The position numbers and the translations under genes are program-made. Below the pieces are notes generated by a model, which saw only the letters and a list, made by a program, of their open reading frames with translations, was not told where the DNA came from and did no database searches. 64,000 bases of DNA from the sequence record PX994957.1; one strand, given 5' to 3'. Below, piece after piece: positions 2,675 to 61,233 of this stretch (position 1 is its first letter; each line of letters opens with the position of its first letter). This DNA comes from a phage.

Positions 2675-3573
<899 letters not shown>

Positions 3574-3576
3574 TCA

Positions 3577-3879
3577 TCATTTAATTCCTAAGAAAACTTC
3601 AAGAATACGAATATTATGCTCACGCCGTCCTTTGTACAATTCAGCTGTTGATTGATTCGCTGATTTACTCTGAACATTGGATGAAATAAATTTTATCATG
3701 TGATTTTTAAGCTGATACATATCAAGCCCACGAGCTTTCGCTTCTTTTCGCAGGGCTTTACCAGCATCATCTAAAGCTTTAGCATGTTCAATGTCTTCGC
3801 TAATGCTTGATACATTTTCACGGCATACGTCAATGTAACGGTCTGAGCATTCAATATAACGTTCTAACAGAGTTTTCAT
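3577..3879 (-). CDS. hypothetical early protein, 100 aa
   Basis: ORF track; stop overlaps pseT-region ATG (ATGA). Confidence 0.55.
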   Translation of the reverse strand: MKTLLERYIECSDRYIDVCRENVSSISEDIEHAKALDDAGKALRKEAKARGLDMYQLKNHMIKFISSNVQSKSANQSTAELYKGRREHNIRILEVFLGIK

Positions 3880-4106
3880 TTATTTTTCTCAACCAATGAT
3901 TGAATATAATCATGCAGGTCTTTAGATGCTTTACCCCACTTATTTTGATATTCATTTTTGAGATTAGCGCGTGATTGAGCTAATAAAACATCATTAGTTG
4001 GAGGTAAAGATTCTAATCGTTGAATCTGTCGTCCATAAATCATTGCAGCCATCTCGGATTCATAAATTAATCCTTTTAGATGTTCAAATTGATACCATGA
4101 AATCAT
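3876..4106 (-). CDS. hypothetical early protein, 76 aa
   Basis: ORF track. Confidence 0.5.
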   Translation of the reverse strand: MISWYQFEHLKGLIYESEMAAMIYGRQIQRLESLPPTNDVLLAQSRANLKNEYQNKWGKASKDLHDYIQSLVEKNK

Positions 4107-5277: not shown

Positions 5278-5307
5278 ACTATAACACAACACGAGGGACT
5301 TGTAAAC
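5278..5307 (-). promoter_or_regulatory. sigma70-type early promoter upstream of alc
   Basis: minus strand GTTTAC-N17-TTATAGT. Confidence 0.5.
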
Positions 5308-5310
5308 AGC

Positions 5311-6898
<1,588 letters not shown>

Positions 6899-6906
6899 AA
6901 TAAAAT

Positions 6907-6920
6907 GGGCCTTGCGGCCC
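6907..6920 (-). terminator. GNRA-tetraloop stem-loop (GGGCC-GCAA-GGCCC) between nrdB stop and denA start; terminator or translation-initiation structure
   Basis: perfect 5-bp stem plus GCAA loop, followed on minus strand by AUUUUAUU and the denA ATG. Confidence 0.5.
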
Positions 6921-6925
6921 ACTCC

Positions 6926-8104
6926 TTAAAAATATTTTTTAAAACTCATCATAACTTTATCATCAACATCATTATCAATCTGTGCTACAAGGTAAGATGA
7001 CAGTTCTACTTCTTGCGGCGCGGATTGAACATTATCAGAATTAAGGTATTCACGAATCCAAGGATATGGATGTTTAACCGGAGCATCGGTAATTGGGCAT
7101 GGAAGACCACACTGTTTCATACGAGATACAGTTAAGTAATCAATAAAGCTCCACATGCTATTTGTATTTAATCCAGGAACATCGCCATCTTTAAATAAAT
7201 GAACTGCCCAATCTTTTTCTTGGCGGTTAACTTCCATGAAAATATCAACTGCTTCTTGTTCACACTCTTGAGCAATTTTAACCCATTCATCACCATCAGT
7301 GCCAAGTTGGAGCTGACGAATAATATACTGGGTGCCTTTAAGGTGGAGTTGTTCGTCTCGAGCAATGAATTTCATAATCTTCGCATTACCTTCCATGATT
7401 TCCATATTTTTATGGAAGTTGAAAGTACATGCAAAGGATACATAAAAACGAATAGCTTCCAGGGCATTGATAACATGAAGGCAGAGATAAAGCGACTTCA
7501 TCAATGCATATTTACATTCTTCCACATGCATAAGACTATTTGAATATGCATCTAAATCATATTCATTTTCGGAAAAACATTTAAAAATTTCTTTTGCATT
7601 TTCCCATTCGCGCGTCTTAACCAGAACATCATCATAATAACGACCAATAGATTCAGCACGTTTCATGATAGCTTTATCTAATACAATCTCATCAAATACC
7701 TTTGACGGATCAGTATAAAGATTTCGCATAATATGAGTGTATGAACGACTGTGAATAGTTTCACTAAAAGTCCATGTAGCAACCCATGTATCAAGACTTG
7801 GGTCTGAAATTAACGACATAAGTACAGCAGACGGTGCACGACCCTGAATGCTATCTAGAAGTGATTGATACTTCAGGTTATTAGTAAAAATATCTTGCTG
7901 ATATTGAGGAAGCTTGTTAAATTGCGCAGCATCCATCATTAAGTTTACTTCTTCAGGACGCCAGAAAAATGACAACTGCTTTTCGGTTAAATCTTCAAAA
8001 ACTTTATGACGTTGAATATCATAACGCGCAATACCAAGACCTGAACCAAAAAACATAGGTTCTTTTAAAACATCAACTGGATTTGTATTAAAAACTGTGC
8101 TCAT
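6926..8104 (-). CDS. nrdB: ribonucleotide reductase small subunit (aerobic), uninterrupted
   Basis: 392 aa continuous ORF; R2 family; T4 synteny. Confidence 0.92.
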   Translation of the reverse strand: MSTVFNTNPVDVLKEPMFFGSGLGIARYDIQRHKVFEDLTEKQLSFFWRPEEVNLMMDAAQFNKLPQYQQDIFTNNLKYQSLLDSIQGRAPSAVLMSLISDPSLDTWVATWTFSETIHSRSYTHIMRNLYTDPSKVFDEIVLDKAIMKRAESIGRYYDDVLVKTREWENAKEIFKCFSENEYDLDAYSNSLMHVEECKYALMKSLYLCLHVINALEAIRFYVSFACTFNFHKNMEIMEGNAKIMKFIARDEQLHLKGTQYIIRQLQLGTDGDEWVKIAQECEQEAVDIFMEVNRQEKDWAVHLFKDGDVPGLNTNSMWSFIDYLTVSRMKQCGLPCPITDAPVKHPYPWIREYLNSDNVQSAPQEVELSSYLVAQIDNDVDDKVMMSFKKYF

Positions 8105-8155
8105 AAATTTTCCGCTTAGTTAATAGTTGGTGACTCGTCCGTGAGTCAAATTATA

Positions 8156-10420
8156 TCATAATTTACAGGATGAACAATCTTCAGCTTTTGGAGTTTCTAT
8201 TTCATAATCATCAGTACCAGAACCGTCACGGGTATTATGATAATAGAAATTTTTTCCGCCAAAATACCAGAAATACAAAAGGTCATCAATCATTATTGAC
8301 ATTGGAACCTTGCCTTTAGGGAAGATTTGGGGGTCATAGTATGTATTCGCCGAAGCTGATTGACAAACCCATTTCAGCATAATAGCTACCTGCGTAAGAT
8401 AAGGTTTATTACCTTTCTTAGCTAATTTCCATGTATAATCATAAAGGTCTATGTTATGCTCAATATTGGGCACGACTTGATTAAAGGAGCCCTCTTTTGA
8501 TTCTTTAACAGAGACTGGTCCACGTGGAGGCTCGATACCGTTTGTACTGTTAGAAACTTGGGAAGATGACTCACATGGCATAAGTGCTGATAATGTGCTA
8601 TTACGGATGCCAAAGAGCTTAAGGTCTTCCCGCAGCGACGACCAGTCACAAACGTATTTTGGAGCTGCGATTTGGTCAATCTTTTTATTGTACCAGTCGA
8701 TAGGTAATTCGCCTCGAGACCAACGAGTGTCTGAATAATATTCACAAGGTCCTTTTTCTTTGGCGAGTTTAATGGATGCTTTAATGAGTCCATACTGTAA
8801 TCTCTCAAATAGTTCATGTGTTAAATCGTTAGCATCTTCATAAGAAGCAAAGTTACTTGCCAACCAAGCTGCATAGTTAGTAACACCTACACCGAGGTTA
8901 CGACGCTTTTTAGCTTTTTCTGCTTCAGGAACTGGATATCCTTGGTAATCCAAAAGATTATCAAGAGCACGAACCTGGACTTCTGCCAATTCATTAATTT
9001 TATCTTGGTCTTGCCAGTCAAAATTATCCAGCACGAATGCAGAGAGAGTACACAATCCAATTTCAGCATCAGGACTATTCACATCATTTGTTGGAATAGC
9101 AATTTCACAGCACAAGTTACTCTGACGAATAGGTGCCTTTTCACGAATAAACGGAGTATAGTTATTCGTATTATCAATGAACTGTACATAAATCCTTGCT
9201 GTTCCTGAGCGTTCAGTCATGAGCAATTCAAATAGTTCACGAGCTTTAATACGCTTTTTACGAATATTAGGGTCTTTTTCTGCGGCTTCATACAATTCAC
9301 GGAAACGGTCTTGGTCTTTAAAATAAGAATAATAAAGCTCTCCGCCCATTTCATGGGGACTGAACAAAGTAATGTAATCGTTCTTTCCAAAACGTTCCAT
9401 CATCAAATCATTCAGTTGAACACCATAATCCATATGACGAATGCGGTTTTCTTCTACGCCTTTGTTATTTTTCAAAACAAGAAGATTTTCAACTTCCAAA
9501 TGCCAAATAGGATAATAAGCAGTAGCAGCGCCGCCACGAATTCCACCCTGTGAGCATGATTTAACAGCAGTCTGAAAATGTTTCCAAAAAGGAATAACAC
9601 CAGTATGGCGTACTTCACCCATGCCAATCTTAGAACCTTCAGCACGAATCATACCAACGTTAATACCAATTCCAGCGCGTTTAGAGATATATTCAACAAT
9701 TGAAGCGGAAGCCTTATTGATAGACTTTAATGAATCACCTGCCTCAATAACAACGCATGAACTAAACTGCCGGGTTGGAGTACGGCAACCAGCCATAATA
9801 GGAGTTGGCAATGAAATCTGTCGAGTAGATACTGCTTCATAAAAACGGATAACGTGTTTTAATCTATCAACAGGTTCATCTTGATGCAATGCCATTCCAA
9901 TAGTCATAAATGCAAACTGTGGAGTTTCATAAATTTGACCAGTGGTTTTATCTTTAACTAGATATTTTTCTTTTAATTGCATCGCCCCGGAATAAGTAAA
10001 TTCCATATCCCGCTCGTGCTTAATTTTTGATTCTAAAAATGTAATTTCTTCTGCAGAATATTTTGACAACAATTCAGGGTCGTATTTACCTTCATTTACA
10101 CAGTAAGAAATATGGTCAATAAATGAACGTGGTTCATACTGCCCATAAACATGCTTACGAAGAGCAAACATTAAACAGCGTGCAGCTACATATTGATAAT
10201 CAGGTTCTTCAACCGAAATAGAATTCGCAGCGGCCTTAATGACAATAGTCTGAATATCATCAGTTGTCATTCCATCACGGAGATAAGATTTAATATTTTC
10301 ATATAATTCATAAGGATCTACTGATGTTCCTTCAGCTGCCCAAGATAAAACTTTAATAATTTTTTGTGGGTCAAAGCTCTGAGAAACACCACTACTTTTG
10401 ATAACATTAATTAATTGCAT
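8156..10420 (-). CDS. nrdA: ribonucleotide reductase large subunit (aerobic)
   Basis: 754 aa; C-terminal CSSCKL tail; T4 synteny. Confidence 0.93.
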   Translation of the reverse strand: MQLINVIKSSGVSQSFDPQKIIKVLSWAAEGTSVDPYELYENIKSYLRDGMTTDDIQTIVIKAAANSISVEEPDYQYVAARCLMFALRKHVYGQYEPRSFIDHISYCVNEGKYDPELLSKYSAEEITFLESKIKHERDMEFTYSGAMQLKEKYLVKDKTTGQIYETPQFAFMTIGMALHQDEPVDRLKHVIRFYEAVSTRQISLPTPIMAGCRTPTRQFSSCVVIEAGDSLKSINKASASIVEYISKRAGIGINVGMIRAEGSKIGMGEVRHTGVIPFWKHFQTAVKSCSQGGIRGGAATAYYPIWHLEVENLLVLKNNKGVEENRIRHMDYGVQLNDLMMERFGKNDYITLFSPHEMGGELYYSYFKDQDRFRELYEAAEKDPNIRKKRIKARELFELLMTERSGTARIYVQFIDNTNNYTPFIREKAPIRQSNLCCEIAIPTNDVNSPDAEIGLCTLSAFVLDNFDWQDQDKINELAEVQVRALDNLLDYQGYPVPEAEKAKKRRNLGVGVTNYAAWLASNFASYEDANDLTHELFERLQYGLIKASIKLAKEKGPCEYYSDTRWSRGELPIDWYNKKIDQIAAPKYVCDWSSLREDLKLFGIRNSTLSALMPCESSSQVSNSTNGIEPPRGPVSVKESKEGSFNQVVPNIEHNIDLYDYTWKLAKKGNKPYLTQVAIMLKWVCQSASANTYYDPQIFPKGKVPMSIMIDDLLYFWYFGGKNFYYHNTRDGSGTDDYEIETPKAEDCSSCKL

Positions 10421-10737
10421 AAGTCCTCAACTTGAAAATCGTCTTTAAACAATCGGTTAACTATATGAGCTATTATATCACCATGACACGGCTTTGGTTT
10501 ACATGTGCATCCTAGCCTCATTCCACGTAAAGGCTCTAAATGTGCTTTAGTTATTTCTCCGGATTTAATTCGACGTATAAAATCTTTTTTGAATAATTCA
10601 ATGGCAGCCTCCCGGCTGCCAGCATCTTTACCGACGTAATTTCCCCAAAATGTACCACGGTGAATATTAACATCAAAGTCGGATTTATATTTATTCACTA
10701 CTCGGCATATACGGCCTGCGCGGTTGTAAGTGTTCAT
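10411..10737 (-). CDS. hypothetical protein, 108 aa (nrdA.1 position)
   Basis: ORF track. Confidence 0.55.
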
Positions 10738-10966
10738 ATTGTTCTTCCGTTAAAACAGTAATATCGTAGTAACAGTCAGAAGAAGTTTTAACTGTGGAAA
10801 TTTTATTATCAAAATACTCACGAGTCATTTTATGAGTATAATATTTTTTGCCATAAATGATAATAGGCTGATTTGGTCCTGGAACTTCTAACTCACTTGG
10901 ATTAGGAAGTGTAAAAAGAACTACACCAGAAGTATCTTTAAATCGTAAAATCATATATCCTCGCAA
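10691..10966 (-). CDS. hypothetical protein, 91 aa (nrdA.2 position)
   Basis: ORF track. Confidence 0.5.
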
Positions 10967-10974
10967 TAATAAAA

Positions 10975-11835
10975 TTACACCGCCATCTTTCCTTTAATAG
11001 GAGGATGTGATTCATAGTTGTTAAGAACAAAATTATGAGGCTTTGCAAATTGACTCAACCAAAATACCTGCGATTCTGTGTCCCATTCATCAAATTCATC
11101 TGGAAATTTTAATTGTAATTCGCATAAATCCATAGGTTCACGACATAAAATTTCTTTACATTGTTCTACGTGATTCATATAGATATGAGTATTACCACCA
11201 GAAAATATCAAATCTCCCGGAATAAGATTACACATCTTAGCTACAATATGAACTAACGTAGCATATGATGCAATATTAAATGGAAGACCGAGGAAAACAT
11301 CTACCGAACGTTGATACCACTGAAGGTCAAGGTATCCATTACGCACATTAAACTGATAGAACATATGACAAGGCGGTAATGCCATATATTTAAGTTCAGC
11401 TGGATTCCACGCAGAAACAATTTGACGCCTATCATTTGGCAGTTTTTTAATACGATCAATAACTTCTATAATTTGATCTACACCGCCAAAATCACGCCAC
11501 TGTTTTCCATAAATTGGACCAAGTTCACCGCTATGGTATCCTAAATCTTTTGCTTGATTTTCGTAATTTTCATCCCAGACTGTTTTGCCTTGAATTAATG
11601 AATCATGTTGAATTAATCGCAAATCATTTACATTTGTGCTTCCTGATAAAAACCATATTAGCTCAGCAATGCATGCATTCCAGGCGAGCTTTTTAGTTGT
11701 TACTGCAGGAAAACCTTTGGTTAAATCCCAACGCAATTTAGTACCGAACAAAGCAATTGTTCCTGTGCCCGTTCGGTCATCGGTTTCATAGCCATTTTCA
11801 AAAATGTCTTTAATTAAATCTTGGTATTGTTTCAT
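10975..11835 (-). CDS. td: thymidylate synthase, uninterrupted (no group I intron)
   Basis: 286 aa continuous ORF; active-site PCH and conserved TS motifs. Confidence 0.93.
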
Positions 11836-11879
11836 TTAGTACCTTATATAAATTATAATACATTTTATGAAGCTAATAA

Positions 11880-12227
11880 TCAATACGGTTTAGCATCAAA
11901 TTTTCTTTCGATTTCAGGAGTGAAATATAATTCTTTACCACGTTTGGAAAAACGACCAATAATATGATAATTATTCTCATCAAACGTGATATTACCAATA
12001 TCCATAGCTTTCAACCAAATATCGATATTTCTATCTAGTTTTATATCAAAATTCCAATACGGAGAACTATTACCAAAAATACTACAAGCGGATTCAGTGA
12101 AACAACTGCTATAAATCTTGTCTTTAGGAACTACTAATTGATAGACACCTTTAATAAACTGAGGACCCTGCCATTTTGGCTGTTTCTCGTCTTTTTCTAA
12201 CAGAATAGGGTAATAATTAAAATTCAT
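11880..12227 (-). CDS. hypothetical protein, 115 aa, between frd and td
   Basis: ORF track; no recognisable motif. Confidence 0.5.
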   Translation of the reverse strand: MNFNYYPILLEKDEKQPKWQGPQFIKGVYQLVVPKDKIYSSCFTESACSIFGNSSPYWNFDIKLDRNIDIWLKAMDIGNITFDENNYHIIGRFSKRGKELYFTPEIERKFDAKPY

Positions 12228-12246
12228 ATTTCCGCCACGCGTTATT

Positions 12247-13076
<830 letters not shown>

Positions 13077-13087
13077 ATTATCTCCTA

Positions 13088-13420
13088 TTAAAAAGGATCA
13101 GGAACATATCCACTAGCTTTAATCATTTTAACTAATGTTACCATTCCTTTGTTAACTGCTTGTGAGATTTCATCAAAAACTTCATCATTAAAAAGTTCTA
13201 GCACACCCTTCTGAACTTTTAATTTACAGCCAACAATTTCGTCATCGCCTATAGTAAATTCATTACCGCCAATTCCACCGAAAAACTTAATTACCCCAGT
13301 TAACTGTTTTCCACGAGAATATGGGTCATGTGATAAAGTAATATGAGTCACCCCAGGTACAGTTTTAAATTGACAGCGAATATTTACTTGTGAAATTCCA
13401 GTTACATGAATGTCAGACAT
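13088..13420 (-). CDS. hypothetical protein, 110 aa (frd.2 position)
   Basis: ORF track. Confidence 0.55.
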   Translation of the reverse strand: MSDIHVTGISQVNIRCQFKTVPGVTHITLSHDPYSRGKQLTGVIKFFGGIGGNEFTIGDDEIVGCKLKVQKGVLELFNDEVFDEISQAVNKGMVTLVKMIKASGYVPDPF

Positions 13421-15519: not shown

Positions 15520-15602
15520 TTTTATTTCCTTTTTAATTTAATTAACAGTTGGTGCTATGACGATGTATGACCTCATAGCTGGTCAGTGAGATAATTATAA
15601 TT
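15520..15602 (-). promoter_or_regulatory. gene 32 translational operator (5' pseudoknot plus unstructured A/U-rich leader)
   Basis: minus strand reads ACCAGCUAUGAGGUCAUACAUCGUCAUAGCAC then A/U-rich tract to the ATG; matches recalled T4 gene 32 autoregulatory leader. Confidence 0.6.
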
Positions 15603-15610
15603 TATTTATA
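15603..15610 (-). promoter_or_regulatory. late promoter TATAAATA upstream of gene 32
   Basis: exact TATAAATA on minus strand. Confidence 0.55.
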
Positions 15611-15618
15611 ATAAGCAA

Positions 15619-16607: not shown

Positions 16608-16854
16608 AAAGTTCAACTACCTCTTCAGTTTCAGCTTCAAACACATCACGATTATCTTTATGATACAAAGCTAATAGACGATTAAACATCTTACCATCAA
16701 CACCAAGTTCATCTTTGGCACGAATTCGAATATCTTTAATCAATTCATTATAACCGGAAATTTTCAGTTTATGATCAGATGCTTCTTTAATAAATTTAGC
16801 CAAGTCTTCGCCATGGATAGCTTCATCAAATTCAACCATTTCTTTTTTAGCCAT
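16585..16854 (-). CDS. dsbA: dsDNA-binding protein DsbA (late transcription enhancer)
   Basis: 89 aa; T4 synteny between rnh and 33. Confidence 0.85.
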   Translation of the reverse strand: MAKKEMVEFDEAIHGEDLAKFIKEASDHKLKISGYNELIKDIRIRAKDELGVDGKMFNRLLALYHKDNRDVFEAETEEVVELYDTVFSK

Positions 16855-16862
16855 TATTCACC

Positions 16863-17780
16863 TCAAAATTCATTAATGCTATTAGTTAATTTAGAAAGAC
16901 CCGCTTTTACAAAATATGAATAAATTTTGCCACGCGGTGGTAATTTATATGAATTATAGTAATTCACAATGTTTGAAGCAATATTATCAGGAATATAATC
17001 AAAATCAATTAGAACTAAATTTTCTTTATAACGATTATATTCAGATTCTGTGAGAAGCACCTTAGCTTGCTCACGGTCATTAGCAATAGCTTCAACGATT
17101 GAAGTTTTCATTGAAGGAGTTCGTTCACCTTCAACTTTGGTAAACCAAAAGTCAGATCGTACTTTAACTGAAGCAACGTTATCCTTTTTATCGCCTTTAA
17201 GGATTTTAGTCATACAGTCAATTTCAGCAGAACCGCTTTTAATTTTAACCCATTTCTTGTGCATCGGTGACCATTGCTTAACATTTGGATATTTGTGAAG
17301 TTGAGTAAAGTCACCATCAGATGAAATGATTAAAATCTTGTGTCCTTCTAAAGAGAACTTTTTAACAAGAACAGCAATGTGGTCATCTGCTTCATACTTA
17401 TCGATATCCATAACAATGTATGGCATATAAGCTTTCAATTCATCTATAACTTTATGACTGGATTCAAAATAACCTTCCCAGTCCCAAGTAGATTCTTCTC
17501 GTGCTTTTCCACGGTTTTTCTTATAATAATACGCGAAATCACGACGCCAATATCCAGATTTCGCATTATCAATACACAGTACAATTTTAGTGTATCCAAG
17601 AGTTTTTGCTTTTTTGACATTAAACTTAATTGAGTTCAATATCAAATGACGAACCATTGATAAATTAATTTTTTCTTTATCTGGAAAGTTTACCAAAGCA
17701 GTTGAAAGCGCAATTTGACTAAAGTCAATAAAGCAAATTCCTTCTTTGTAATCTTCATCCAGCATCATTTCTAAATCCAT
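16863..17780 (-). CDS. rnh: RNase H (5'-3' exonuclease, FEN-1 family)
   Basis: 305 aa from MDLEMM; matches recalled T4 RNase H. Confidence 0.93.
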   Translation of the reverse strand: MDLEMMLDEDYKEGICFIDFSQIALSTALVNFPDKEKINLSMVRHLILNSIKFNVKKAKTLGYTKIVLCIDNAKSGYWRRDFAYYYKKNRGKAREESTWDWEGYFESSHKVIDELKAYMPYIVMDIDKYEADDHIAVLVKKFSLEGHKILIISSDGDFTQLHKYPNVKQWSPMHKKWVKIKSGSAEIDCMTKILKGDKKDNVASVKVRSDFWFTKVEGERTPSMKTSIVEAIANDREQAKVLLTESEYNRYKENLVLIDFDYIPDNIASNIVNYYNSYKLPPRGKIYSYFVKAGLSKLTNSINEF

Positions 17781-26932: not shown

Positions 26933-26936
26933 AATG

Positions 26937-26950
26937 AGGGGCTTCGGCCC
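26937..26950 (+). promoter_or_regulatory. UUCG-tetraloop hairpin between gene 37 stop and gene 38 RBS
   Basis: GGGGC-UUCG-GCCCC immediately 5' of GGAGG and the gene 38 ATG. Confidence 0.5.
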
Positions 26951-26963
26951 CTTGGAGGTTTAT

Positions 26964-27758
26964 ATGGCAGTTGAAGGACCGTGGGTAGGATGGTCTGCGA
27001 GGGTACAAACTGGAGACCCTTGGATGGGTGGTGCCGCGCAGAGATTGAGAATGGGAATTCCGTTTTGGATGAGTAATATGATAGGTCGATCTGTTGAAGT
27101 AATTCACACCCTTGGAGCGGACCATAACTTTAATGGTCAATGGTTCCGAGATAGATGTTTTGAGGCAGGTAGTGCACCTATAGTGTTTAATATTACCGGA
27201 AATTTGGTATCATATTCTAGAGACGTTCCTTTATTCTTCATGTACGGAGATACACCTAATGAATATGTTCAGTTGAATATTGGTGGCGGCGTCCATATGT
27301 GGGGTAGAGGTGGACAAGGTGGATGGACTCATTCCGGCGGAGATGGTAATGGTCAACAAGGTGGTCATTGTATTCAAAATGACATCGGTGGACGATTAAG
27401 AATTAATAACGGTGGAGTAATTTGTGGTGGAGGTGGAGGTGGAGGTGGTATCGCTTATCGTCCTCACTCTGGTGCAAATTGGCAAGATATTGGTGGTGGT
27501 GGAGGAAGACCATTTGGCCCAGGAGGAGGCGGAGGTTATTCCGGCGGCGCAGCTTCTTATGATGGCCCAGGAGGTGGTTATAATTATGGTAATGCTCACT
27601 CTGGCCAGGGTGGTGATGCTGGCGCAAATGGACAAAATGCCTGGTATGATGGCGGTAAAGTTCTAAAAGTTGGAGCTGGTGGCGCTGCCGGATATGCTGT
27701 TATAGGATCAGCTCCAACATGGCAAAATGTTGGAGTAATATATGGTCCAAGGGTATAA
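26964..27758 (+). CDS. 38: tail fibre adhesin gp38 (T2-type, glycine-rich)
   Basis: 264 aa from [10 protein letters not shown] with GGAGG RBS; several poly-Gly blocks. Confidence 0.85.
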
Positions 27759-30538: not shown

Positions 30539-31174
30539 TCACAGTTCAGATGCTACAGTGATTACAGCTTCAATGTTTTCTGCCGAGCGTTTAATGTCAA
30601 GATACACATTACCGTTTTTAGCGATTTTACATGACATTCCGATATCAGTAAATTTCTGAATATGATGTTCCATCATTTTGTATCCAAAAATTCGCATATT
30701 TCCATTGTTGTTAATTTCAAAATTACGAATTCCGTGAGTACGTTTTTCTAAAATAGCGAGATAGTTACTACGATAAGTTTCAACCTTTTTAAGAACAAAT
30801 CCATTTTCATCTAAAAGTTTTAACATGAGGTCTTTATCTTCTTCCATATCAGAAGTAATTTCGCGAGCTTTACGAGTTGCTCGTTTTTTCAGTAGTTCCG
30901 GAGCATTTTCCTGTGCGTATAAAGTTGCTGCATTTGAAATAATATCCTGAGCTTCACCAGTAATGATTAATCCATCACCTGATTTCTCCACCAGGCCTTT
31001 TTTAATCAACACCCCAATATTACTATTAACTACTGCGTTACCTAAATCTGGATGCACCTCACGAACTTCTGCAGCTGTAATGAAATCTTTCTTAGCAATA
31101 GTAATTAAAATCGCAGCAGTTTTTTCATTCAGAACATCGTTAGAAGCTTTGATGATGTAAGTTACTTTAGACAT
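30539..31174 (-). CDS. motA: middle-transcription activator MotA (intact)
   Basis: 211 aa; matches recalled T4 MotA. Confidence 0.93.
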   Translation of the reverse strand: MSKVTYIIKASNDVLNEKTAAILITIAKKDFITAAEVREVHPDLGNAVVNSNIGVLIKKGLVEKSGDGLIITGEAQDIISNAATLYAQENAPELLKKRATRKAREITSDMEEDKDLMLKLLDENGFVLKKVETYRSNYLAILEKRTHGIRNFEINNNGNMRIFGYKMMEHHIQKFTDIGMSCKIAKNGNVYLDIKRSAENIEAVITVASEL

Positions 31175-31215
31175 TTTCTAATCTCCGTAATTCTGTATCA
31201 GTAGTTGATAGTTGT

Positions 31216-31245
31216 ATAGTACCACAGTATGCTTTGGTTGTAAAC
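31216..31245 (-). promoter_or_regulatory. sigma70-type early promoter for motA with conserved leader box
   Basis: minus strand GTTTAC-N18-TACTAT; leader box gtagttgatagttgtatagtacca. Confidence 0.6.
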
Positions 31246-31271
31246 CGTTTTGTGAAAAAAAAAATTAAAAT

Positions 31272-31297
31272 AAAAAAGGGAGAGCCTCGGCTCTCCC
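31272..31297 (-). terminator. rho-independent terminator (copy A)
   Basis: GGGAGAGCC-GAG-GCUCUCCC followed by U6 on minus strand. Confidence 0.7.
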
Positions 31298-31302
31298 TAA
31301 AA

Positions 31303-31452
31303 TTACTGCATGACTGTGATAACTGTCATGATAACACGTTGAATTCCGAACGCAAGAAGACCTCCTGCTACGGCTGGAACAACACCTAAACCCGCCAGTA
31401 AAATGCTACCGGATACTAATGCAGCGCTTGTAATACCTATGAATGGACTCAT
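31303..31452 (-). CDS. small hydrophobic membrane protein, 49 aa (copy A)
   Basis: own translation MSPFIGITSAALVSG...; ATG overlaps upstream stop (ATGA). Confidence 0.5.
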   Translation of the reverse strand: MSPFIGITSAALVSGSILLAGLGVVPAVAGGLLAFGIQRVIMTVITVMQ

Positions 31453-32174
31453 TTGATTTCCTCTAAATCTTTAGTGTATTCGGTAACTACATTAGTAGTT
31501 TTCCAATATTCGTTTTCTTCTTTCTTAGCTTTAGCTTCTTCAGCAAGTTTCTTTGCTTCGTCGGAAGTCATATGAAAAATATTCATTCCAACTAGTTTAT
31601 CAACATAAGAAGAATACATATCGATTTTCGAAAGTTCTTCGGTCAGTTCTTTGCGAGTTTTACCCTGCACAACGATTTCACCTGAAATTACTTTCTTAAT
31701 GAAATGTGCCTTGGCAAAGGCTAAACGAAAAGCTGACTCAGTTTCTTTGATTTTGTTATCAATTCGTTTTTGGACATAAGTTTTACGAACTTCAACAAAG
31801 TCTTTAATTAAATCAAGTTTTAACATGAGGTCTTTATCTTCTTCCATATCAGAAGTAATTTCGCGAGCTTTACGAGTTGCTCGTTTTTTCAGTAGTTCCG
31901 GAGCATTTTCCTGTGCGTATAAAGTTGCTGCATTTGAAATAATATCCTGAGCTTCACCAGTAATGATTAATCCATCACCTGATTTCTCCACCAGGCCTTT
32001 TTTAATCAACACCCCAATATTACTATTAACTACTGCGTTACCTAAATCTGGATGCACCTCACGAACTTCTGCAGCTGTAATGAAATCTTTCTTAGCAATA
32101 GTAATTAAAATCGCAGCAGTTTTTTCATTCAGAACATCGTTAGAAGCTTTGATGATGTAAGTTACTTTAGACAT
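31449..32174 (-). CDS. chimeric ORF: MotA residues 1-120 fused in frame to gp52 residues 322-442
   Basis: 241-aa ORF; N-terminal half identical to motA, C-terminal half identical to the gene 52 3' end; lies on the duplication junction 31816/31817. Confidence 0.8.
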   Translation of the reverse strand: MSKVTYIIKASNDVLNEKTAAILITIAKKDFITAAEVREVHPDLGNAVVNSNIGVLIKKGLVEKSGDGLIITGEAQDIISNAATLYAQENAPELLKKRATRKAREITSDMEEDKDLMLKLDLIKDFVEVRKTYVQKRIDNKIKETESAFRLAFAKAHFIKKVISGEIVVQGKTRKELTEELSKIDMYSSYVDKLVGMNIFHMTSDEAKKLAEEAKAKKEENEYWKTTNVVTEYTKDLEEIK

Positions 32175-32215
32175 TTTCTAATCTCCGTAATTCTGTATCA
32201 GTAGTTGATAGTTGT

Positions 32216-32245
32216 ATAGTACCACAGTATGCTTTGGTTGTAAAC
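32216..32245 (-). promoter_or_regulatory. duplicate copy of the motA early promoter, now upstream of the chimeric ORF
   Basis: identical to 31216-31245. Confidence 0.6.
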
Positions 32246-32271
32246 CGTTTTGTGAAAAAAAAAATTAAAAT

Positions 32272-32297
32272 AAAAAAGGGAGAGCCTCGGCTCTCCC
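32272..32297 (-). terminator. rho-independent terminator (copy B)
   Basis: identical to 31272-31297. Confidence 0.7.
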
Positions 32298-32302
32298 TAA
32301 AA

Positions 32303-32452
32303 TTACTGCATGACTGTGATAACTGTCATGATAACACGTTGAATTCCGAACGCAAGAAGACCTCCTGCTACGGCTGGAACAACACCTAAACCCGCCAGTA
32401 AAATGCTACCGGATACTAATGCAGCGCTTGTAATACCTATGAATGGACTCAT
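32303..32452 (-). CDS. small hydrophobic membrane protein, 49 aa (copy B)
   Basis: identical to 31303-31452. Confidence 0.5.
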   Translation of the reverse strand: MSPFIGITSAALVSGSILLAGLGVVPAVAGGLLAFGIQRVIMTVITVMQ

Positions 32453-33777
32453 TTGATTTCCTCTAAATCTTTAGTGTATTCGGTAACTACATTAGTAGTT
32501 TTCCAATATTCGTTTTCTTCTTTCTTAGCTTTAGCTTCTTCAGCAAGTTTCTTTGCTTCGTCGGAAGTCATATGAAAAATATTCATTCCAACTAGTTTAT
32601 CAACATAAGAAGAATACATATCGATTTTCGAAAGTTCTTCGGTCAGTTCTTTGCGAGTTTTACCCTGCACAACGATTTCACCTGAAATTACTTTCTTAAT
32701 GAAATGTGCCTTGGCAAAGGCTAAACGAAAAGCTGACTCAGTTTCTTTGATTTTGTTATCAATTCGTTTTTGGACATAAGTTTTACGAACTTCAACAAAG
32801 TCTTTAATTAAATCAACTACGTTATCGTAAACTTGTAGTTTTCCTTTCTCATTAATAACCGTAATATTCTGAGAACGACGCTCAATCAACCCGAAGTCTT
32901 TCATAATTTTTGCATGGCGTTCTTCTTCGTTATCGCTCAAAGAATATTCTTTACGGAATTTAACTTTGAATCCAAAACCATGCTCACCACAAGCATCATC
33001 CCATGTAATGAAGCCTTTATCTTCAAGTGGGTCTAAGATTTTACTCACATAAGTTTCACGATCATACTTATACGGAATCTCAGTGATATGCATTTGAGTT
33101 CGTGAAGTAAACTTATATGTTCCACGAATTTCATATTGGCCATCAATCTCAACGACTTCACCACGAAATTCTGGGAATTCTACCTTCGGTTTAGTTACTT
33201 TCTTTCCTTGAAGAGCTTGTAATACAGCTTTCTTAACAGAAGAAACACTATGAGGAAGAATGTAAGTTGCATAACCAGTTGCAATACCGGAAACACCATT
33301 AAGAAGAACAGTAGGAATAATAGGCAAATAGAAAGCAGGCGGAATGTGTTCTTTATCTTGATGTACCGGAGCATATTCAGTATCTTTATATACGTTATAG
33401 AAATTTTTACTTACACGAGCAAAAATATAACGACTTGCTGCTGCTTTTTGGACGGTACGAGAACCAAAGTTTCCTTGACCATCTAACAGAGGAAAATTAT
33501 TATTCCAAGTGTTAGCCATCAAAGCACCTGCGTCTTGCGCAGAGTTTTCACCATGATGATATCCAAGGTCCGCTACACCACCTGCAATAGAAGCGAGTTT
33601 GTGAAACTTATCTTTATTTCCTCGTGCCAAATCAAGAGCTCGAGCAATAACAAATCGTTGAACTGGCTTAAATCCGTCAATCATATTTGGAATGGCACGA
33701 TTTTCAACCGTGTACATAGCATAAGCCAATGCTTCATTATCAATGATACTTTTTAAATCGCGATTATTCAGTTGCAT
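32449..33777 (-). CDS. 52: DNA topoisomerase II medium subunit gp52 (GyrA-like, intact)
   Basis: 442 aa; catalytic-Tyr region AASRYI; T4 synteny. Confidence 0.93.
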   Translation of the reverse strand: MQLNNRDLKSIIDNEALAYAMYTVENRAIPNMIDGFKPVQRFVIARALDLARGNKDKFHKLASIAGGVADLGYHHGENSAQDAGALMANTWNNNFPLLDGQGNFGSRTVQKAAASRYIFARVSKNFYNVYKDTEYAPVHQDKEHIPPAFYLPIIPTVLLNGVSGIATGYATYILPHSVSSVKKAVLQALQGKKVTKPKVEFPEFRGEVVEIDGQYEIRGTYKFTSRTQMHITEIPYKYDRETYVSKILDPLEDKGFITWDDACGEHGFGFKVKFRKEYSLSDNEEERHAKIMKDFGLIERRSQNITVINEKGKLQVYDNVVDLIKDFVEVRKTYVQKRIDNKIKETESAFRLAFAKAHFIKKVISGEIVVQGKTRKELTEELSKIDMYSSYVDKLVGMNIFHMTSDEAKKLAEEAKAKKEENEYWKTTNVVTEYTKDLEEIK

Positions 33778-40330: not shown

Positions 40331-40360
40331 ATTATACCACATCCTTGTGGTAAAGTAAAC
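40331..40360 (-). promoter_or_regulatory. sigma70-type early promoter with extended -10 (TGTGGTATAAT) and CCACA-N4-TGTGG palindrome
   Basis: minus strand GTTTAC-N17-TATAAT. Confidence 0.65.
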
Positions 40361-42180
40361 TACTGGCTCATCCATTCTTTACGAAGGTCAGCATTATCTC
40401 CCATGAGCATTTCAAAAAGCTCTTTCCAGTTCTCAGGAAGTTTAACAACATCATATACTGGATTTTGAATCATCTCACGATATTCAGATTTTTCCAAAGA
40501 GCCAAGTCCCTTAATATAACGGATGCTATGTTTAGGTAGAGCATCTTTAGCACTCTCATATTCAGCGACTGTATAAAACCATTCTTGTTTTTTACCGACC
40601 TGAGCGATGATTACAGGAGTTTTGACAAAGCGAATTCGTCCTTGCTCAAACAATTCTGGCCAATTACTAAAAAATCCGAGCAGAGAAGGATAAATGCTTC
40701 CTAGACCATCATGGTCAGCATCGGTCATAATAGCAATATTATGATAATTCAAGTTTTCAGCTTTTTCACCAAGAACTAATCCAGTGATTGCGCAAATATC
40801 AAACAGTTCTTTGTTTTTAAGCATATCAGCATATGACATACCCCAACTGTTGAGAACTTTACCACGCAATGGATAACCACCGTGAAGTTCTTTATCACGA
40901 ACATCAATAAGATATCCGATAGCAGAATCACCCTCAGTCAAGAAAAGAGTAGTGTCAGCATCTTTACCACAAAGATTCGCTTTGATATGTTTATGAACCT
41001 TAGCTTTAGAAGCCTTTTTAGCTGCTTTAGTTTCTGCCGCTTTTTCTGCTGCCAATTTACGGGCCAAGGCAGCTTCAATAATTGGCATCAAAATAGCTTC
41101 ATTATTTAGAATAGCGCGTGAAATCTTTTTAGCATCAAGTTGAATATGACTACGAATTTCGCCAAATGGAGAAGTCAAACGCTCTTTAGTCTGAGAATCA
41201 AATCGCATGTTTTTCATATCACGAACAAACATAACGATAGTCAAACATTCTTTAACACGTGCTTTAGTCACATCAATTTTGAACTTACGTTTGATTTGTG
41301 GAATAAGGTCTTCACAAATATCATCCATAACACAGTCAATGTGATGGCCACCATTCTTAGTGTGAATGTTATTCACATAAGTTAATTGACGAAATCCATC
41401 CGGTGAACGACCAACAGCAATAGAACAATTTTCTTGTTCTTGAACAATAGCATGCTCATCATATTGGCGTGCATATTTCTTAAAATTACCCTGAACCTTT
41501 TTACCATTAAAGGTAAATTGAATATCAGGATAAACGACAGCAAGTGTCTGGAGACGATCCAGTGTAATGTCAAGATAAACCTGAGACAGCTCATTAGTTT
41601 CAAATGACATAAAATCAGGAATGAAAGTAACACGAGTTCCTTTCCATTTTCCAGGAATAGTTTCCCAGGATTTATTTTCCATACCATTTGAACAACGAAC
41701 TACAATATTATTTTGACCATCGCCAGTTTCACCGACAAACATCACAGAAAAAATGTTTGTCAAACTAGAACCAACACCATTCATACCACCGGTGACGCGT
41801 TCTTTATCATCACCGAAGTTACCACCTGCTTTTGGAATAGTCCAGGCAGCAACAGGACCAGGAATTTCTTCACCGGTAGGTGTTTTAACCATCGCTTGTG
41901 GAATACCGCGACCGTTATCTTCAACTGTTACCTGATTATTTTTAATGGTAACATTAATTTTATTCGCGAATTTAAACTTAGTACGAATACCTTCATCTAC
42001 TGAGTTATCGATAATTTCATCAATAAGCTTAACAAGACCAGGTACATACTGAACACTTTCCCATTTACCAAACAGAAAGCGCTCATGCATTTCATTAGCA
42101 GAAGAGCCAATATACATGCCGCTACGCTTTTTGATATGTTCAATATCGCTCAGAATTTTAATTTCATTCTTAATCATCAC
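40360..42180 (-). CDS. 39: DNA topoisomerase II large subunit (GyrB-like ATPase plus Toprim), single uninterrupted gene
   Basis: 606 aa continuous; covers what T4 splits into genes 39 and 60. Confidence 0.93.
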   Translation of the reverse strand: MMIKNEIKILSDIEHIKKRSGMYIGSSANEMHERFLFGKWESVQYVPGLVKLIDEIIDNSVDEGIRTKFKFANKINVTIKNNQVTVEDNGRGIPQAMVKTPTGEEIPGPVAAWTIPKAGGNFGDDKERVTGGMNGVGSSLTNIFSVMFVGETGDGQNNIVVRCSNGMENKSWETIPGKWKGTRVTFIPDFMSFETNELSQVYLDITLDRLQTLAVVYPDIQFTFNGKKVQGNFKKYARQYDEHAIVQEQENCSIAVGRSPDGFRQLTYVNNIHTKNGGHHIDCVMDDICEDLIPQIKRKFKIDVTKARVKECLTIVMFVRDMKNMRFDSQTKERLTSPFGEIRSHIQLDAKKISRAILNNEAILMPIIEAALARKLAAEKAAETKAAKKASKAKVHKHIKANLCGKDADTTLFLTEGDSAIGYLIDVRDKELHGGYPLRGKVLNSWGMSYADMLKNKELFDICAITGLVLGEKAENLNYHNIAIMTDADHDGLGSIYPSLLGFFSNWPELFEQGRIRFVKTPVIIAQVGKKQEWFYTVAEYESAKDALPKHSIRYIKGLGSLEKSEYREMIQNPVYDVVKLPENWKELFEMLMGDNADLRKEWMSQ

Positions 42181-53336: not shown

Positions 53337-53367
53337 AATAAACTCCTTTATTGTTTAATTACAGGTG

Positions 53368-53375
53368 TATTTATA
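53368..53375 (-). promoter_or_regulatory. late promoter TATAAATA upstream of soc
   Basis: exact TATAAATA on minus strand 32 nt upstream of the soc ATG. Confidence 0.65.
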
Positions 53376-53517
53376 ACTTACAATTTAGCGGCTTTCCAGA
53401 GTTGTTCAATAATCTCTTGGTCTATTTCTTTAGTTATTTCATTACGTAATAAAGCAGTAAGGGCTTTCGCCCTTTTCTTATTCAACTTTTTGAGTTGACG
53501 TTTATTTAAACAAGCCA

Positions 53518-54036: not shown

Positions 54037-54109
54037 GTTATTTTTCCTTTCAATTCATGGGTTAGTAGATTAATTATACAATAAATATATAAAGCAATAA
54101 GGAGGACAT

Positions 54110-60305: not shown

Positions 60306-60384
60306 TCATTTTTTTTCCATAGGCATCATTATATTTTCCTCACTGGTTAAAGATAGAGTAATTATAACACAATAAATTTAGGCA

Positions 60385-61233
60385 TTAATCAACTGCTATT
60401 GGATGAATAGCATTAAACTTATGAAATGCTTCTGATTTTTCTTTACGTGAAACGCACATGCGAAGAACCTTTAATGGCTCGTCTTCTTCACCCAACGATT
60501 TTCGTTTTTCAATATTCGACGTTTTCCAACGAGCTTGCTCTGGAAACTCTCTATTGATTTGCTCAAGCGCTCTATTATGTTTAGAATTACTACGAATTGA
60601 ACTGCACCCGCCAGGAGCTTGTGCTTTTCCAGATACAACCAGATATTTGAACAAGGCCAAATGCGGATAACCTTGATTAATTAAATTGAGAAATGCATAC
60701 ATATCTTCGCACAAATCAATTTTTCCATACCCAATTTGTTCTGTCGTAAGTTTTCCAAGGTCATACCATGTATTCGTGAATCCATATGAATTTTCACGAT
60801 AATTACCCCAAGATGAAGTAATTTTAAAAATAGGTAGACGAGCATGACCATGATAATACCCGCAATCCATGGCATCTTCGACGTATTGAATCAATTCATA
60901 GAACTGTTCATGAGTCAATTGATTAACTTTATCCACACAACGACGGTCATCTCTTTTTCGCATTGAACTCATACGAATAGTAGTATCATCGTCAATCATC
61001 CAGATTCGTTGACCTGCATACATATCAGTAATTGCTTTACGAGTACCGGCAATTCCGTTTACATCATCAGGAATAGTTATAATTTTAGCTCTAGACCCAT
61101 AGGCATCATAATAAGCTTTTTCTTCATGTTCACGCACTACAATATGGGGTTCATAATCAGTCGGAAACATATCAAGGGCAGAAACTGCCCCGACACGCTG
61201 ATAACTTGGAATTACGAATTGAATCATTTCCAC
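60385..61233 (-). CDS. putative hmC-DNA glycosyltransferase (DxD motif) in the slot occupied by beta-gt in T4
   Basis: 282 aa; WMIDDDTTI DxD-like motif; not the T4 beta-gt sequence; lies between uvsX and 42. Confidence 0.45.
   Translation of the reverse strand: MEMIQFVIPSYQRVGAVSALDMFPTDYEPHIVVREHEEKAYYDAYGSRAKIITIPDDVNGIAGTRKAITDMYAGQRIWMIDDDTTIRMSSMRKRDDRRCVDKVNQLTHEQFYELIQYVEDAMDCGYYHGHARLPIFKITSSWGNYRENSYGFTNTWYDLGKLTTEQIGYGKIDLCEDMYAFLNLINQGYPHLALFKYLVVSGKAQAPGGCSSIRSNSKHNRALEQINREFPEQARWKTSNIEKRKSLGEEDEPLKVLRMCVSRKEKSEAFHKFNAIHPIAVD

Follow-up and report, generated by a model that had tools for sequence, protein, structure and literature searches.

In phage T4, both td and nrdB are interrupted by group I introns with endonuclease ORFs: the T4 record gives each gene as two joined pieces, with I-TevI inside the 1017-nt td intron and I-TevIII, a truncated and defective ORF of 97 aa, inside the 598-nt nrdB intron. 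T4 is an outlier with 15 endonucleases, few being found in most of its relatives (PMC2988022), and reports that T-even phages vary in whether they carry the td and nrdB introns date back to 1987-1989 (Pedersen-Lane & Belfort; Quirk et al., as cited in PMC2988022). The homing site of I-TevI spans 38 bp, is cleaved at −23/−25 and requires a CXXXG motif (PMC2988022), and the nick site of MobE has been mapped to nt 122-126 of T2 nrdB (PMC2790892).

Here, we analyzed the same block of genes in a stretch of 64,000 nt from the phage sequence record PX994957.1, hereafter the window. This stretch almost certainly carries intron- and endonuclease-free alleles of the T-even frd-td-nrdA-nrdB-denA block, in which the T4 intron sites of both td and nrdB are empty.

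The td and nrdB genes at the T4 insertion sites

An initial annotation, made from the letters and the ORF list of the window, had described td and nrdB as continuous genes of 286 and 392 aa and had contrasted them with the intron-bearing genes of T4. The features concerned are as follows.

10975..11835, minus strand: td, thymidylate synthase, uninterrupted (ORF call, 286 aa)
11286..11287, minus strand: empty T4 td intron site, td nt 549/550, ...CCTCGGT/CTTCCATT... (alignment to T4)
11276..11313, minus strand: equivalent of the 38-bp I-TevI homing site, −27 to +11 (T4 alignment)
11038..11145, minus strand: hypervariable patch of Td, aa ~231-266 (protein and nucleotide comparison)
6926..8104, minus strand: nrdB, class Ia ribonucleotide reductase small subunit, uninterrupted (ORF call, 392 aa)
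7428..7429, minus strand: empty T4 nrdB intron site, nrdB nt 676/677, ...TTTGCAT/GTACTTTC... (alignment to T4)
7945..8014, minus strand: nrdB nt 91-160, with the equivalent of the MobE nick site (sequence comparison)
7505..7594, minus strand: hypervariable patch of NrdB, aa ~171-200, 4 aa longer than in T4 (alignment)

The td product matched the Pfam thymidylate synthase family over the full profile (PF00303 Thymidylat_synt, positions 1-266 of 266, 3.9e-94, 315.2 bits, cut-off 24.3), and 257 of its 286 residues (90%) are identical to spliced T4 Td. It contains the catalytic-Cys motif ALPPCH, with the conserved PPCH, and residues 151-162 are the same as in T4 Td. Similarly, NrdB matched PF00268 (Ribonuc_red_sm, 3e-36, 125.7 bits, cut-off 33.6) and is identical to spliced T4 NrdB at 357 of 388 aa (92%). 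The sequences SETIHSRSY (aa 114) and RDEQLH (aa 249), which are also the same as in T4 NrdB, we take to be the di-iron ligand and tyrosyl-radical motifs (E-x-x-H ... Y and E-x-x-H), with residues assigned from E. coli R2.

Mapping against T4 by blastn paired td nt 1-549 with T4 td 1-549 and nt 550-861 with T4 td 1567-1878; the exon 1 match stops at window position 11287 and the exon 2 match starts at 11286, with zero bases between them. Likewise, nrdB nt 1-676 matched T4 nrdB 1-664 and nt 677-1179 matched T4 nrdB 1263-1765, again with zero bases between the exon matches at the insertion site (nt 664/665 in T4 numbering), so that the T4 junction falls between window positions 7429 and 7428. Since the exon matches adjoin directly, the window is continuous over both T4 exon-exon junctions. 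Read directly from the structure, this continuity is no statistical pattern and calls for no chance model. The continuity proposed initially was thus borne out by the ORF calls, the full-length Pfam match of td and the abutting exon matches, and its description of T4 agrees with the T4 record. Both genes should be annotated here as single-exon genes, and beyond correct annotation the finding is of little importance.

An intron-less state could also be produced by an assembly or sequence-editing artefact. Two tandem duplications with perfectly identical copies, of 1000 bp and 499 bp, lie in the window (at 30815-32814 and at its start), the former not found in any database phage, and such exact copies make some assembly or editing problem conceivable. 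However, hundreds of independent phage genomes, T2, KIT03 and RB51 among them, share the junctions seen here, the reading frames of td and nrdB are perfect, and the td of RB51 is 99.9% identical in nucleotides to that of the window, which leaves an artefact at td and nrdB with a negligible chance.

Introns and endonucleases across the window

When the DNA of the T4 td, nrdB and nrdD introns was compared with the whole 64-kb window by blastn, only chance matches of ≤35 nt were returned. Using Rfam, the group I core (RF00028) gave no match at E≤10 in positions 6000-13000, and at the gathering threshold the whole window gave 0 matches. At E≤10 the core of the T4 td intron was recovered, with 40.3 bits and therefore below the cut-off of 50, while the T4 nrdB intron was missed; the gathering threshold was also blank for the intron-bearing loci of T4 and ECP52. 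A null result at the gathering threshold was therefore dropped as a sufficient intron test, being blind to the introns of T4 and ECP52 themselves, and because Rfam misses T4's own introns at that threshold and recovers only the td core at E≤10, the absence of an intron rests on the alignment and on the blastn comparison with the T4 introns.

Endonuclease genes were searched by tblastn with the 15 T4 endonucleases (seg, mob and I-Tev) and the HNH genes of Sf23 and REP2, and nothing in the window fell below E=0.05 except denA. No GIY-YIG (I-TevI) or HNH (I-TevIII) ORF was found inside td or nrdB, and none of the window ORFs lacking a T4 homologue has a nuclease domain in Pfam or PHROG. Hence the I-Tev, seg and mob search that had been suggested yielded no gene in the 64-kb window, and neither an endonuclease ORF nor a group I core, either of which would have spoken against intron-less genes, was present inside td or nrdB. 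The seven T4 endonuclease loci across this span (I-TevIII, mobE, I-TevI, segG, mobA, segF and segA) are all empty; the span represents 64 kb of a genome of ~167 kb (~38%), and the third T4 intron locus (nrdD, with I-TevII) and eight other T4 endonuclease loci, among them segB, segC, segD, segE, mobB, mobC and mobD, fall outside it.

The neighbouring genes of the block are listed below.

6488..6922, minus strand: denA, endonuclease II, 144 aa (97-98% aa identity to T4 DenA)
8105..8155, minus strand: nrdA-nrdB spacer, 51 bp (ORF positions, comparison with T4 and T2)
8156..10420, minus strand: nrdA, uninterrupted, 754 aa (ORF; 98.5% aa identity to T4)
10411..10966, minus strand: homologues of nrdA.1 (DUF4326) and nrdA.2 (DUF5496) (homology, Pfam)
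11880..12227, minus strand: 115-aa ORF between frd and td (ORF; phrog_1928)

Two of these were considered as possible endonucleases or their remnants. The ORF at 6488-6922 beside nrdB has a GIY-YIG match (Pfam, 5.7e-6) and an 'endonuclease' PHROG match (9.8e-65), and it was ruled out as a homing endonuclease by its 97-98% identity to T4 DenA: it is denA, an ordinary T4 gene with a GIY-YIG fold. The 115-aa ORF has neither a Pfam domain nor a nuclease domain, its PHROG match is a family of unknown function, and it is found in T2 (with one residue different), KIT03, REP2, ECP52 and Sf23; given these features and its conservation as an undamaged ORF in T2 and numerous further phages, it was rejected as an endonuclease remnant. 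T4 lacks this ORF, and its frd and td overlap. The nrdA-nrdB spacer is empty in both the window and T2, whereas mobE and nrdB.1 occupy this locus in T4.

Empty homing sites and their flanks

Three relatives, ECP52, Sf23 and REP2, share the backbone of the window at 96-98% identity, and each has exactly one mobile insertion absent from it: the td intron with I-TevI in ECP52, a 243-aa mobE-like HNH gene between nrdA and nrdB in Sf23, and a 236-aa HNH gene that splits nrdA in REP2. The flanks of the ECP52 intron are mixed, T4-like on the 5′ side (td nt 501-546) and window-like on the 3′ side, which is the footprint expected of homing into a window-type allele.

In the window, the T4 positions of the td intron (I-TevI), the nrdB intron (defective I-TevIII) and mobE would represent unoccupied homing sites, and the td and nrdB products are made from contiguous genes without RNA splicing. 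Upon co-infection with an intron-bearing relative, the elements would probably be gained through gene conversion initiated by a double-strand break or a nick. We infer from sequence comparison that the empty sites are probably still invadable, because the I-TevI cleavage motif CAACG is intact and correctly spaced (window 11309-11313, minus strand), and because the MobE target does not differ from the substrate mapped in T2: nrdB nt 91-160 (70 nt) are 100% identical to T2 and diverged from T4.

The 38-bp I-TevI site has six synonymous differences from T4, at −22, −19, −6, −4, +3 and +6, and six synonymous substitutions relative to T4 lie within ~40 bp of the nrdB insertion site. These two sets of changes form a counterpoint to the inferred homing susceptibility.

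Around the td site, nt 481-570 are only 85% identical to T4, compared with 97-100% on either side, and all the changes are silent. Silent changes over the I-TevI site might make td resistant to cleavage, so that target-site immunity and not a lack of exposure would keep the intron out, perhaps at nrdB too, which we consider quite improbable: the CAACG motif and its spacing are retained, and the contacts of I-TevI are sequence-tolerant according to Bryk et al. 1993, as cited in PMC2988022. Moreover, several positions of the T2 site likewise depart from T4, and still T2 acts as the recipient when I-TevI mediates recombination in crosses of T4 with T2 (PMC2790892); in ECP52 the intron lies within a backbone of the window type, with bases of that type in the 3′ flank as well; and the MobE target of the window is that of the sensitive T2 allele. 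Donor flanks hitch-hiking with the intron account equally well for the local divergence of td. That the synonymous cluster at td nt 501-567 and the equivalent changes beside the nrdB site could form a selected 'immunity' allele, which would have kept introns out of the lineage despite frequent co-infection with intron-bearing phages, seems very improbable; the seven empty T4 endonuclease loci within 64 kb would fit such a lineage resistant to colonisation.

Regarding history, an ancestor may once have had the td and/or nrdB intron, which was then removed precisely, for instance when the gene recombined with that of an intron-less relative or with a spliced cDNA. Intron presence is patchy among genomes >95% identical, which means that introns must be both gained and lost often, and REP2, which is intron-less, is nevertheless T4-like at td nt 501-513 beside window-like nt 528-546, a mosaic compatible with a past conversion tract. 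However, within 50 nt upstream of the td insertion site the window has 11 synonymous differences from the intron-bearing flanks, and a flank that never received the intron-linked sequence is a simpler reading than loss. Secondary loss would be expected to leave no scar and none was seen, and the sequence tells neither history from the other; overall, loss appears unlikely. With the block read as intron- and endonuclease-free alleles with empty homing sites, a phage in which all endonuclease loci of the visible span are empty would suit as a natural recipient in homing or marker-exclusion crosses.

Comparison with T4, T2 and other relatives

Over the window, 53.7 of the 64 kb (84%) align to T4 at 94.7% identity. 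The ICTV criterion places phages in one species when their genome-wide nucleotide identity is 95% or more. The value of 94.7% over 53.7 kb, with ~38% of the genome compared, points to a species other than Tequatrovirus T4, and membership of the genus Tequatrovirus is clear; over a 25-kb stretch, identity to any phage record did not exceed about 97.6%. The phage and T4 have orthologous td and nrdB genes with identical protein termini and the same neighbouring genes; unlike T4, the phage lacks both introns, and it has a T2-type gp38 adhesin, a beta-glucosyl-HMC-alpha-glucosyltransferase where T4 has b-gt, a gene 39/60 that is not split, and no dam. The alignment and the last four of these differences support the earlier placement of the phage outside T4 proper. 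Intron absence alone is no taxonomic marker, because ECP52, 97.9% identical over the block, has the td intron.

Among the 602 matching phage records, td is contiguous in 407, and a contiguous nrdB junction was found in at least 317 records; the T4 td intron occurs in 197 records and the T4 nrdB intron in 118. Within positions 6400-12900, KIT03, RB51, wV7 and NBEco003 align at 96-97.5% as one collinear piece without an intron or endonuclease. The gene layout of KIT03 is identical to that of the window, and its nrdB is only 89.8% identical because of a T2-like variable patch. The hypervariable patch of Td is common to the window, KIT03, REP2 and Sf23 and unlike those of T4 and T2, while that of NrdB is a third allele type, common to REP2.

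The T2 frd-td-nrdA-nrdB-denA block (AP018813.1, 133.3-139.7 kb) has the same gene order and lengths as the window, with a td of 861 nt, an nrdB of 1179 nt, a 51-bp nrdA/nrdB spacer and a 348-nt frd-td ORF, and with no introns and no mobE. It differs in that nucleotide identity is only 88% for td and 91% for nrdB, the C-terminal patch of Td is T4-type and the variable patch of NrdB is different. Intron-free td and nrdB are thus confirmed here as an ordinary state, already known to be common among T4 relatives, and the layout of the block is shared with T2 and most sequenced Tequatrovirus genomes.

Intron insertion sites in td and nrdB

Between positions 5300 and 13000 every gene lies on the minus strand, and the block is listed below in transcription order.

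Genes of the block (position, strand, gene)
12247-12858, minus, frd
11880-12227, minus, 115-aa ORF
10975-11835, minus, td, 286 aa (Pfam Thymidylat_synt, 3.9e-94, whole profile)
10411-10966, minus, nrdA.2 and nrdA.1
8156-10420, minus, nrdA, 754 aa
6926-8104, minus, nrdB, 392 aa (Pfam Ribonuc_red_sm, 3e-36)
6488-6922, minus, denA
5311-6471, minus, rnlA

Both td and nrdB are single ORFs, with exactly the coordinates and lengths reported in the initial annotation. Td is identical to spliced T4 Td at 257 of 286 residues and keeps the PPCH catalytic motif, and NrdB matches spliced T4 NrdB at 357 of 388 residues, with the SETIHSRSY and RDEQLH metal/radical motifs kept. NrdB and Td are both >95% conserved except within a single short hypervariable patch (NrdB aa ~171-200, 7505-7594; Td aa ~231-266, 11038-11145). 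The NrdB patch occurs in at least three allele types (T4/Sf23, T2/KIT03 and window/REP2) and the Td patch in two (T4/T2 versus window/KIT03/REP2/Sf23), which sort independently of intron status.

T4 had been said to carry introns with endonuclease ORFs in both genes, and the annotation of the T4 reference (NC_000866) agrees: td and nrdB are each given as two joined pieces, enclosing I-TevI and a defective I-TevIII, respectively, and mobE and nrdB.1 lie between nrdA and nrdB. When aligned to T4, both insertion sites were empty in the window. Nucleotides 1-549 of td correspond to T4 td 1-549 and 550-861 to 1567-1878, the 1017-nt intron being missing between 11287 and 11286; nucleotides 1-676 of nrdB correspond to T4 1-664 (with 12 extra nt in the variable patch) and 677-1179 to 1263-1765, the 598-nt intron being missing between 7429 and 7428. 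The nrdA-nrdB spacer measures 51 bp and therefore holds neither mobE nor nrdB.1.

Search for intron and endonuclease sequences

Rfam at the gathering score gave no match in the window, which is not a valid test because the T4 and ECP52 introns were missed too; at E<=10, region 6000-13000 again gave no match, while the T4 td intron core was detected as a control (RF00028, 40.3 bits). T4 td, nrdB and nrdD intron DNA produced only chance blastn matches of <=35 nt. By tblastn, neither the full set of 15 T4 homing endonucleases nor the HNH genes of Sf23 and REP2 gave anything below E=0.05 in any frame of the window, with denA as positive control (6e-95). In T4 coordinates the window starts at 131.5 kb, passes the end of the record and continues to 28 kb, a span that in T4 holds I-TevIII, mobE, I-TevI, segG, mobA, segF and segA, and all seven loci are empty in the 64-kb window.

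Empty free-standing endonuclease loci
8105-8155, mobE
15520-15618, segG (between genes 32 and 59)
40696-40759, mobA
53337-53517, segF (between soc and 56)
60306-60384, segA (after uvsX)

No nuclease domain was found in Pfam or PHROGs for window ORFs lacking a T4 homologue, and no intergenic gap exceeds 250 bp. The intron-less reading of td and nrdB thus held: alignment, blastn and tblastn found no endonuclease ORF or intron core inside either gene, and the search for I-Tev, seg and mob genes gave no match within the window.

Insertions in relatives and state of the empty sites

The block behaves as a hot spot for insertions, since near relatives sharing the same backbone each differ from the window by one mobile insertion: a td intron with I-TevI in ECP52, a 243-aa mobE-like HNH gene between nrdA and nrdB in Sf23, and, in REP2, a 236-aa mobE/mobB-like HNH endonuclease gene splitting nrdA into two ORFs (locus L007, 2057-5225). 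In ECP52, td nt 501-546, which adjoin the insertion site on its upstream, I-TevI-cleaved side, are T4-like, and nt 552-567 are window-like, as would be expected of a co-conversion tract from homing into a window-type allele. Carriage of the intron-linked flank along with the intron would also explain why window-versus-T4 identity falls to 85% at td nt 481-570, with all changes silent.

I-TevI depends on CNNNG lying 23-27 nt upstream of where the intron inserts; at other positions of the 38-bp site it accepts many substitutions (PMC2988022). The window's site carries six silent differences from T4, and such changes could have made the allele immune to intron invasion; with CAACG at the required distance (11309-11313), a resistance allele is possible but unlikely. 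MobE nicks T2 nrdB at nt 122-126 and so mobilises, in trans, both mobE itself and the intron of nrdB (PMC2790892); window nrdB is identical to T2 at nt 91-160. The cuts made by I-TevIII fall 14 and 16 bp upstream of the point where the nrdB intron inserts (PMC1865063), in a stretch conserved in the window. Judged from these three retained sequences, we regard td and nrdB as carrying empty homing sites that are probably still open to invasion.

Placement relative to T4 and other phages

This Tequatrovirus is not T4 proper, as initially proposed, and intron absence alone would not show this. Only 53.7 of 64 kb align to T4, at 94.7% identity, and the best database matches reach 96-97.6%. Gp38 (26934-27758, plus) is a T2-type adhesin (Pfam GP38, 1.4e-68), gp37 shares only 35% identity with its T4 counterpart, and the place of b-gt is taken by a 282-aa beta-glucosyl-HMC-alpha-glucosyltransferase (60385-61233, minus; phrog_842, 2e-89; Pfam TAGT). 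The topoisomerase large subunit, gene 39, is one unsplit 606-aa ORF (40360-42180, minus); T4 2794-3910 (~1.1 kb: gene 60 bypass region, 60.1 and mobA) is replaced by 64 bp, so that the window lacks the 39/60 split and the 50-nt translational bypass element. The dam gene (T4 16846-17625) is absent between genes 56 and 61 (54037-54098), a junction shared with Sf23, G157lw, EO1 and others, while G50 and G4498 have a homing endonuclease there. Four small ORFs occur in T2 or KIT03 and are absent from T4, and the T4 frd/td overlap therefore looks derived.

Small ORFs in T2 or KIT03, not T4
3577-3879, minus, phrog_2364
11880-12227, minus, phrog_1928
12831-13076, minus, phrog_3183
13088-13420, minus, DUF7247/phrog_3566

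Outside the td/nrdB question, the most unusual feature seen was two perfectly identical tandem duplications. One, of 1000 bp (30815-31814 and 31815-32814, 100% identical), has a 2-nt AA microhomology at its junction, leaves motA (30539-31174) and gene 52 (32449-33777) intact, and creates a chimeric 241-aa ORF (31449-32174, minus) in which the activation domain of MotA is joined to the C-terminal portion of topoisomerase subunit gp52. Its junction, as one piece, was present in none of 500 matching phage records; the duplication could be very recent, an assembly artefact or an edit, and its round length is suspicious. The other, of 499 bp relative to T4, makes 1-158 identical to 500-657; its unit (159-657, T4 131485-131983) runs from the 5′ end of gene 31 across 31.1 into the beginning of 31.2, and the window start cuts off the first copy.

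Block 6400-12900 matched ~550 records at >=80% identity, as a single collinear piece in most of the best 40. The 861-nt td query, whose pieces the search tool cannot join across a 1017-nt intron, matched contiguously in 407 of the 602 records it hit, and a 150-nt probe with the nrdB insertion site at its centre did so in at least 317. At >=80% coverage, 197 records contained the T4 td intron and 118 the nrdB intron. The literature agrees with this commonness, variable intron occurrence having been reported in 1987-1989 (references cited in PMC2988022), and the biology of intron-free td and nrdB is already known. The layout of the window recurs unchanged in T2 (AP018813) and KIT03, down to the 115-aa ORF absent from T4.
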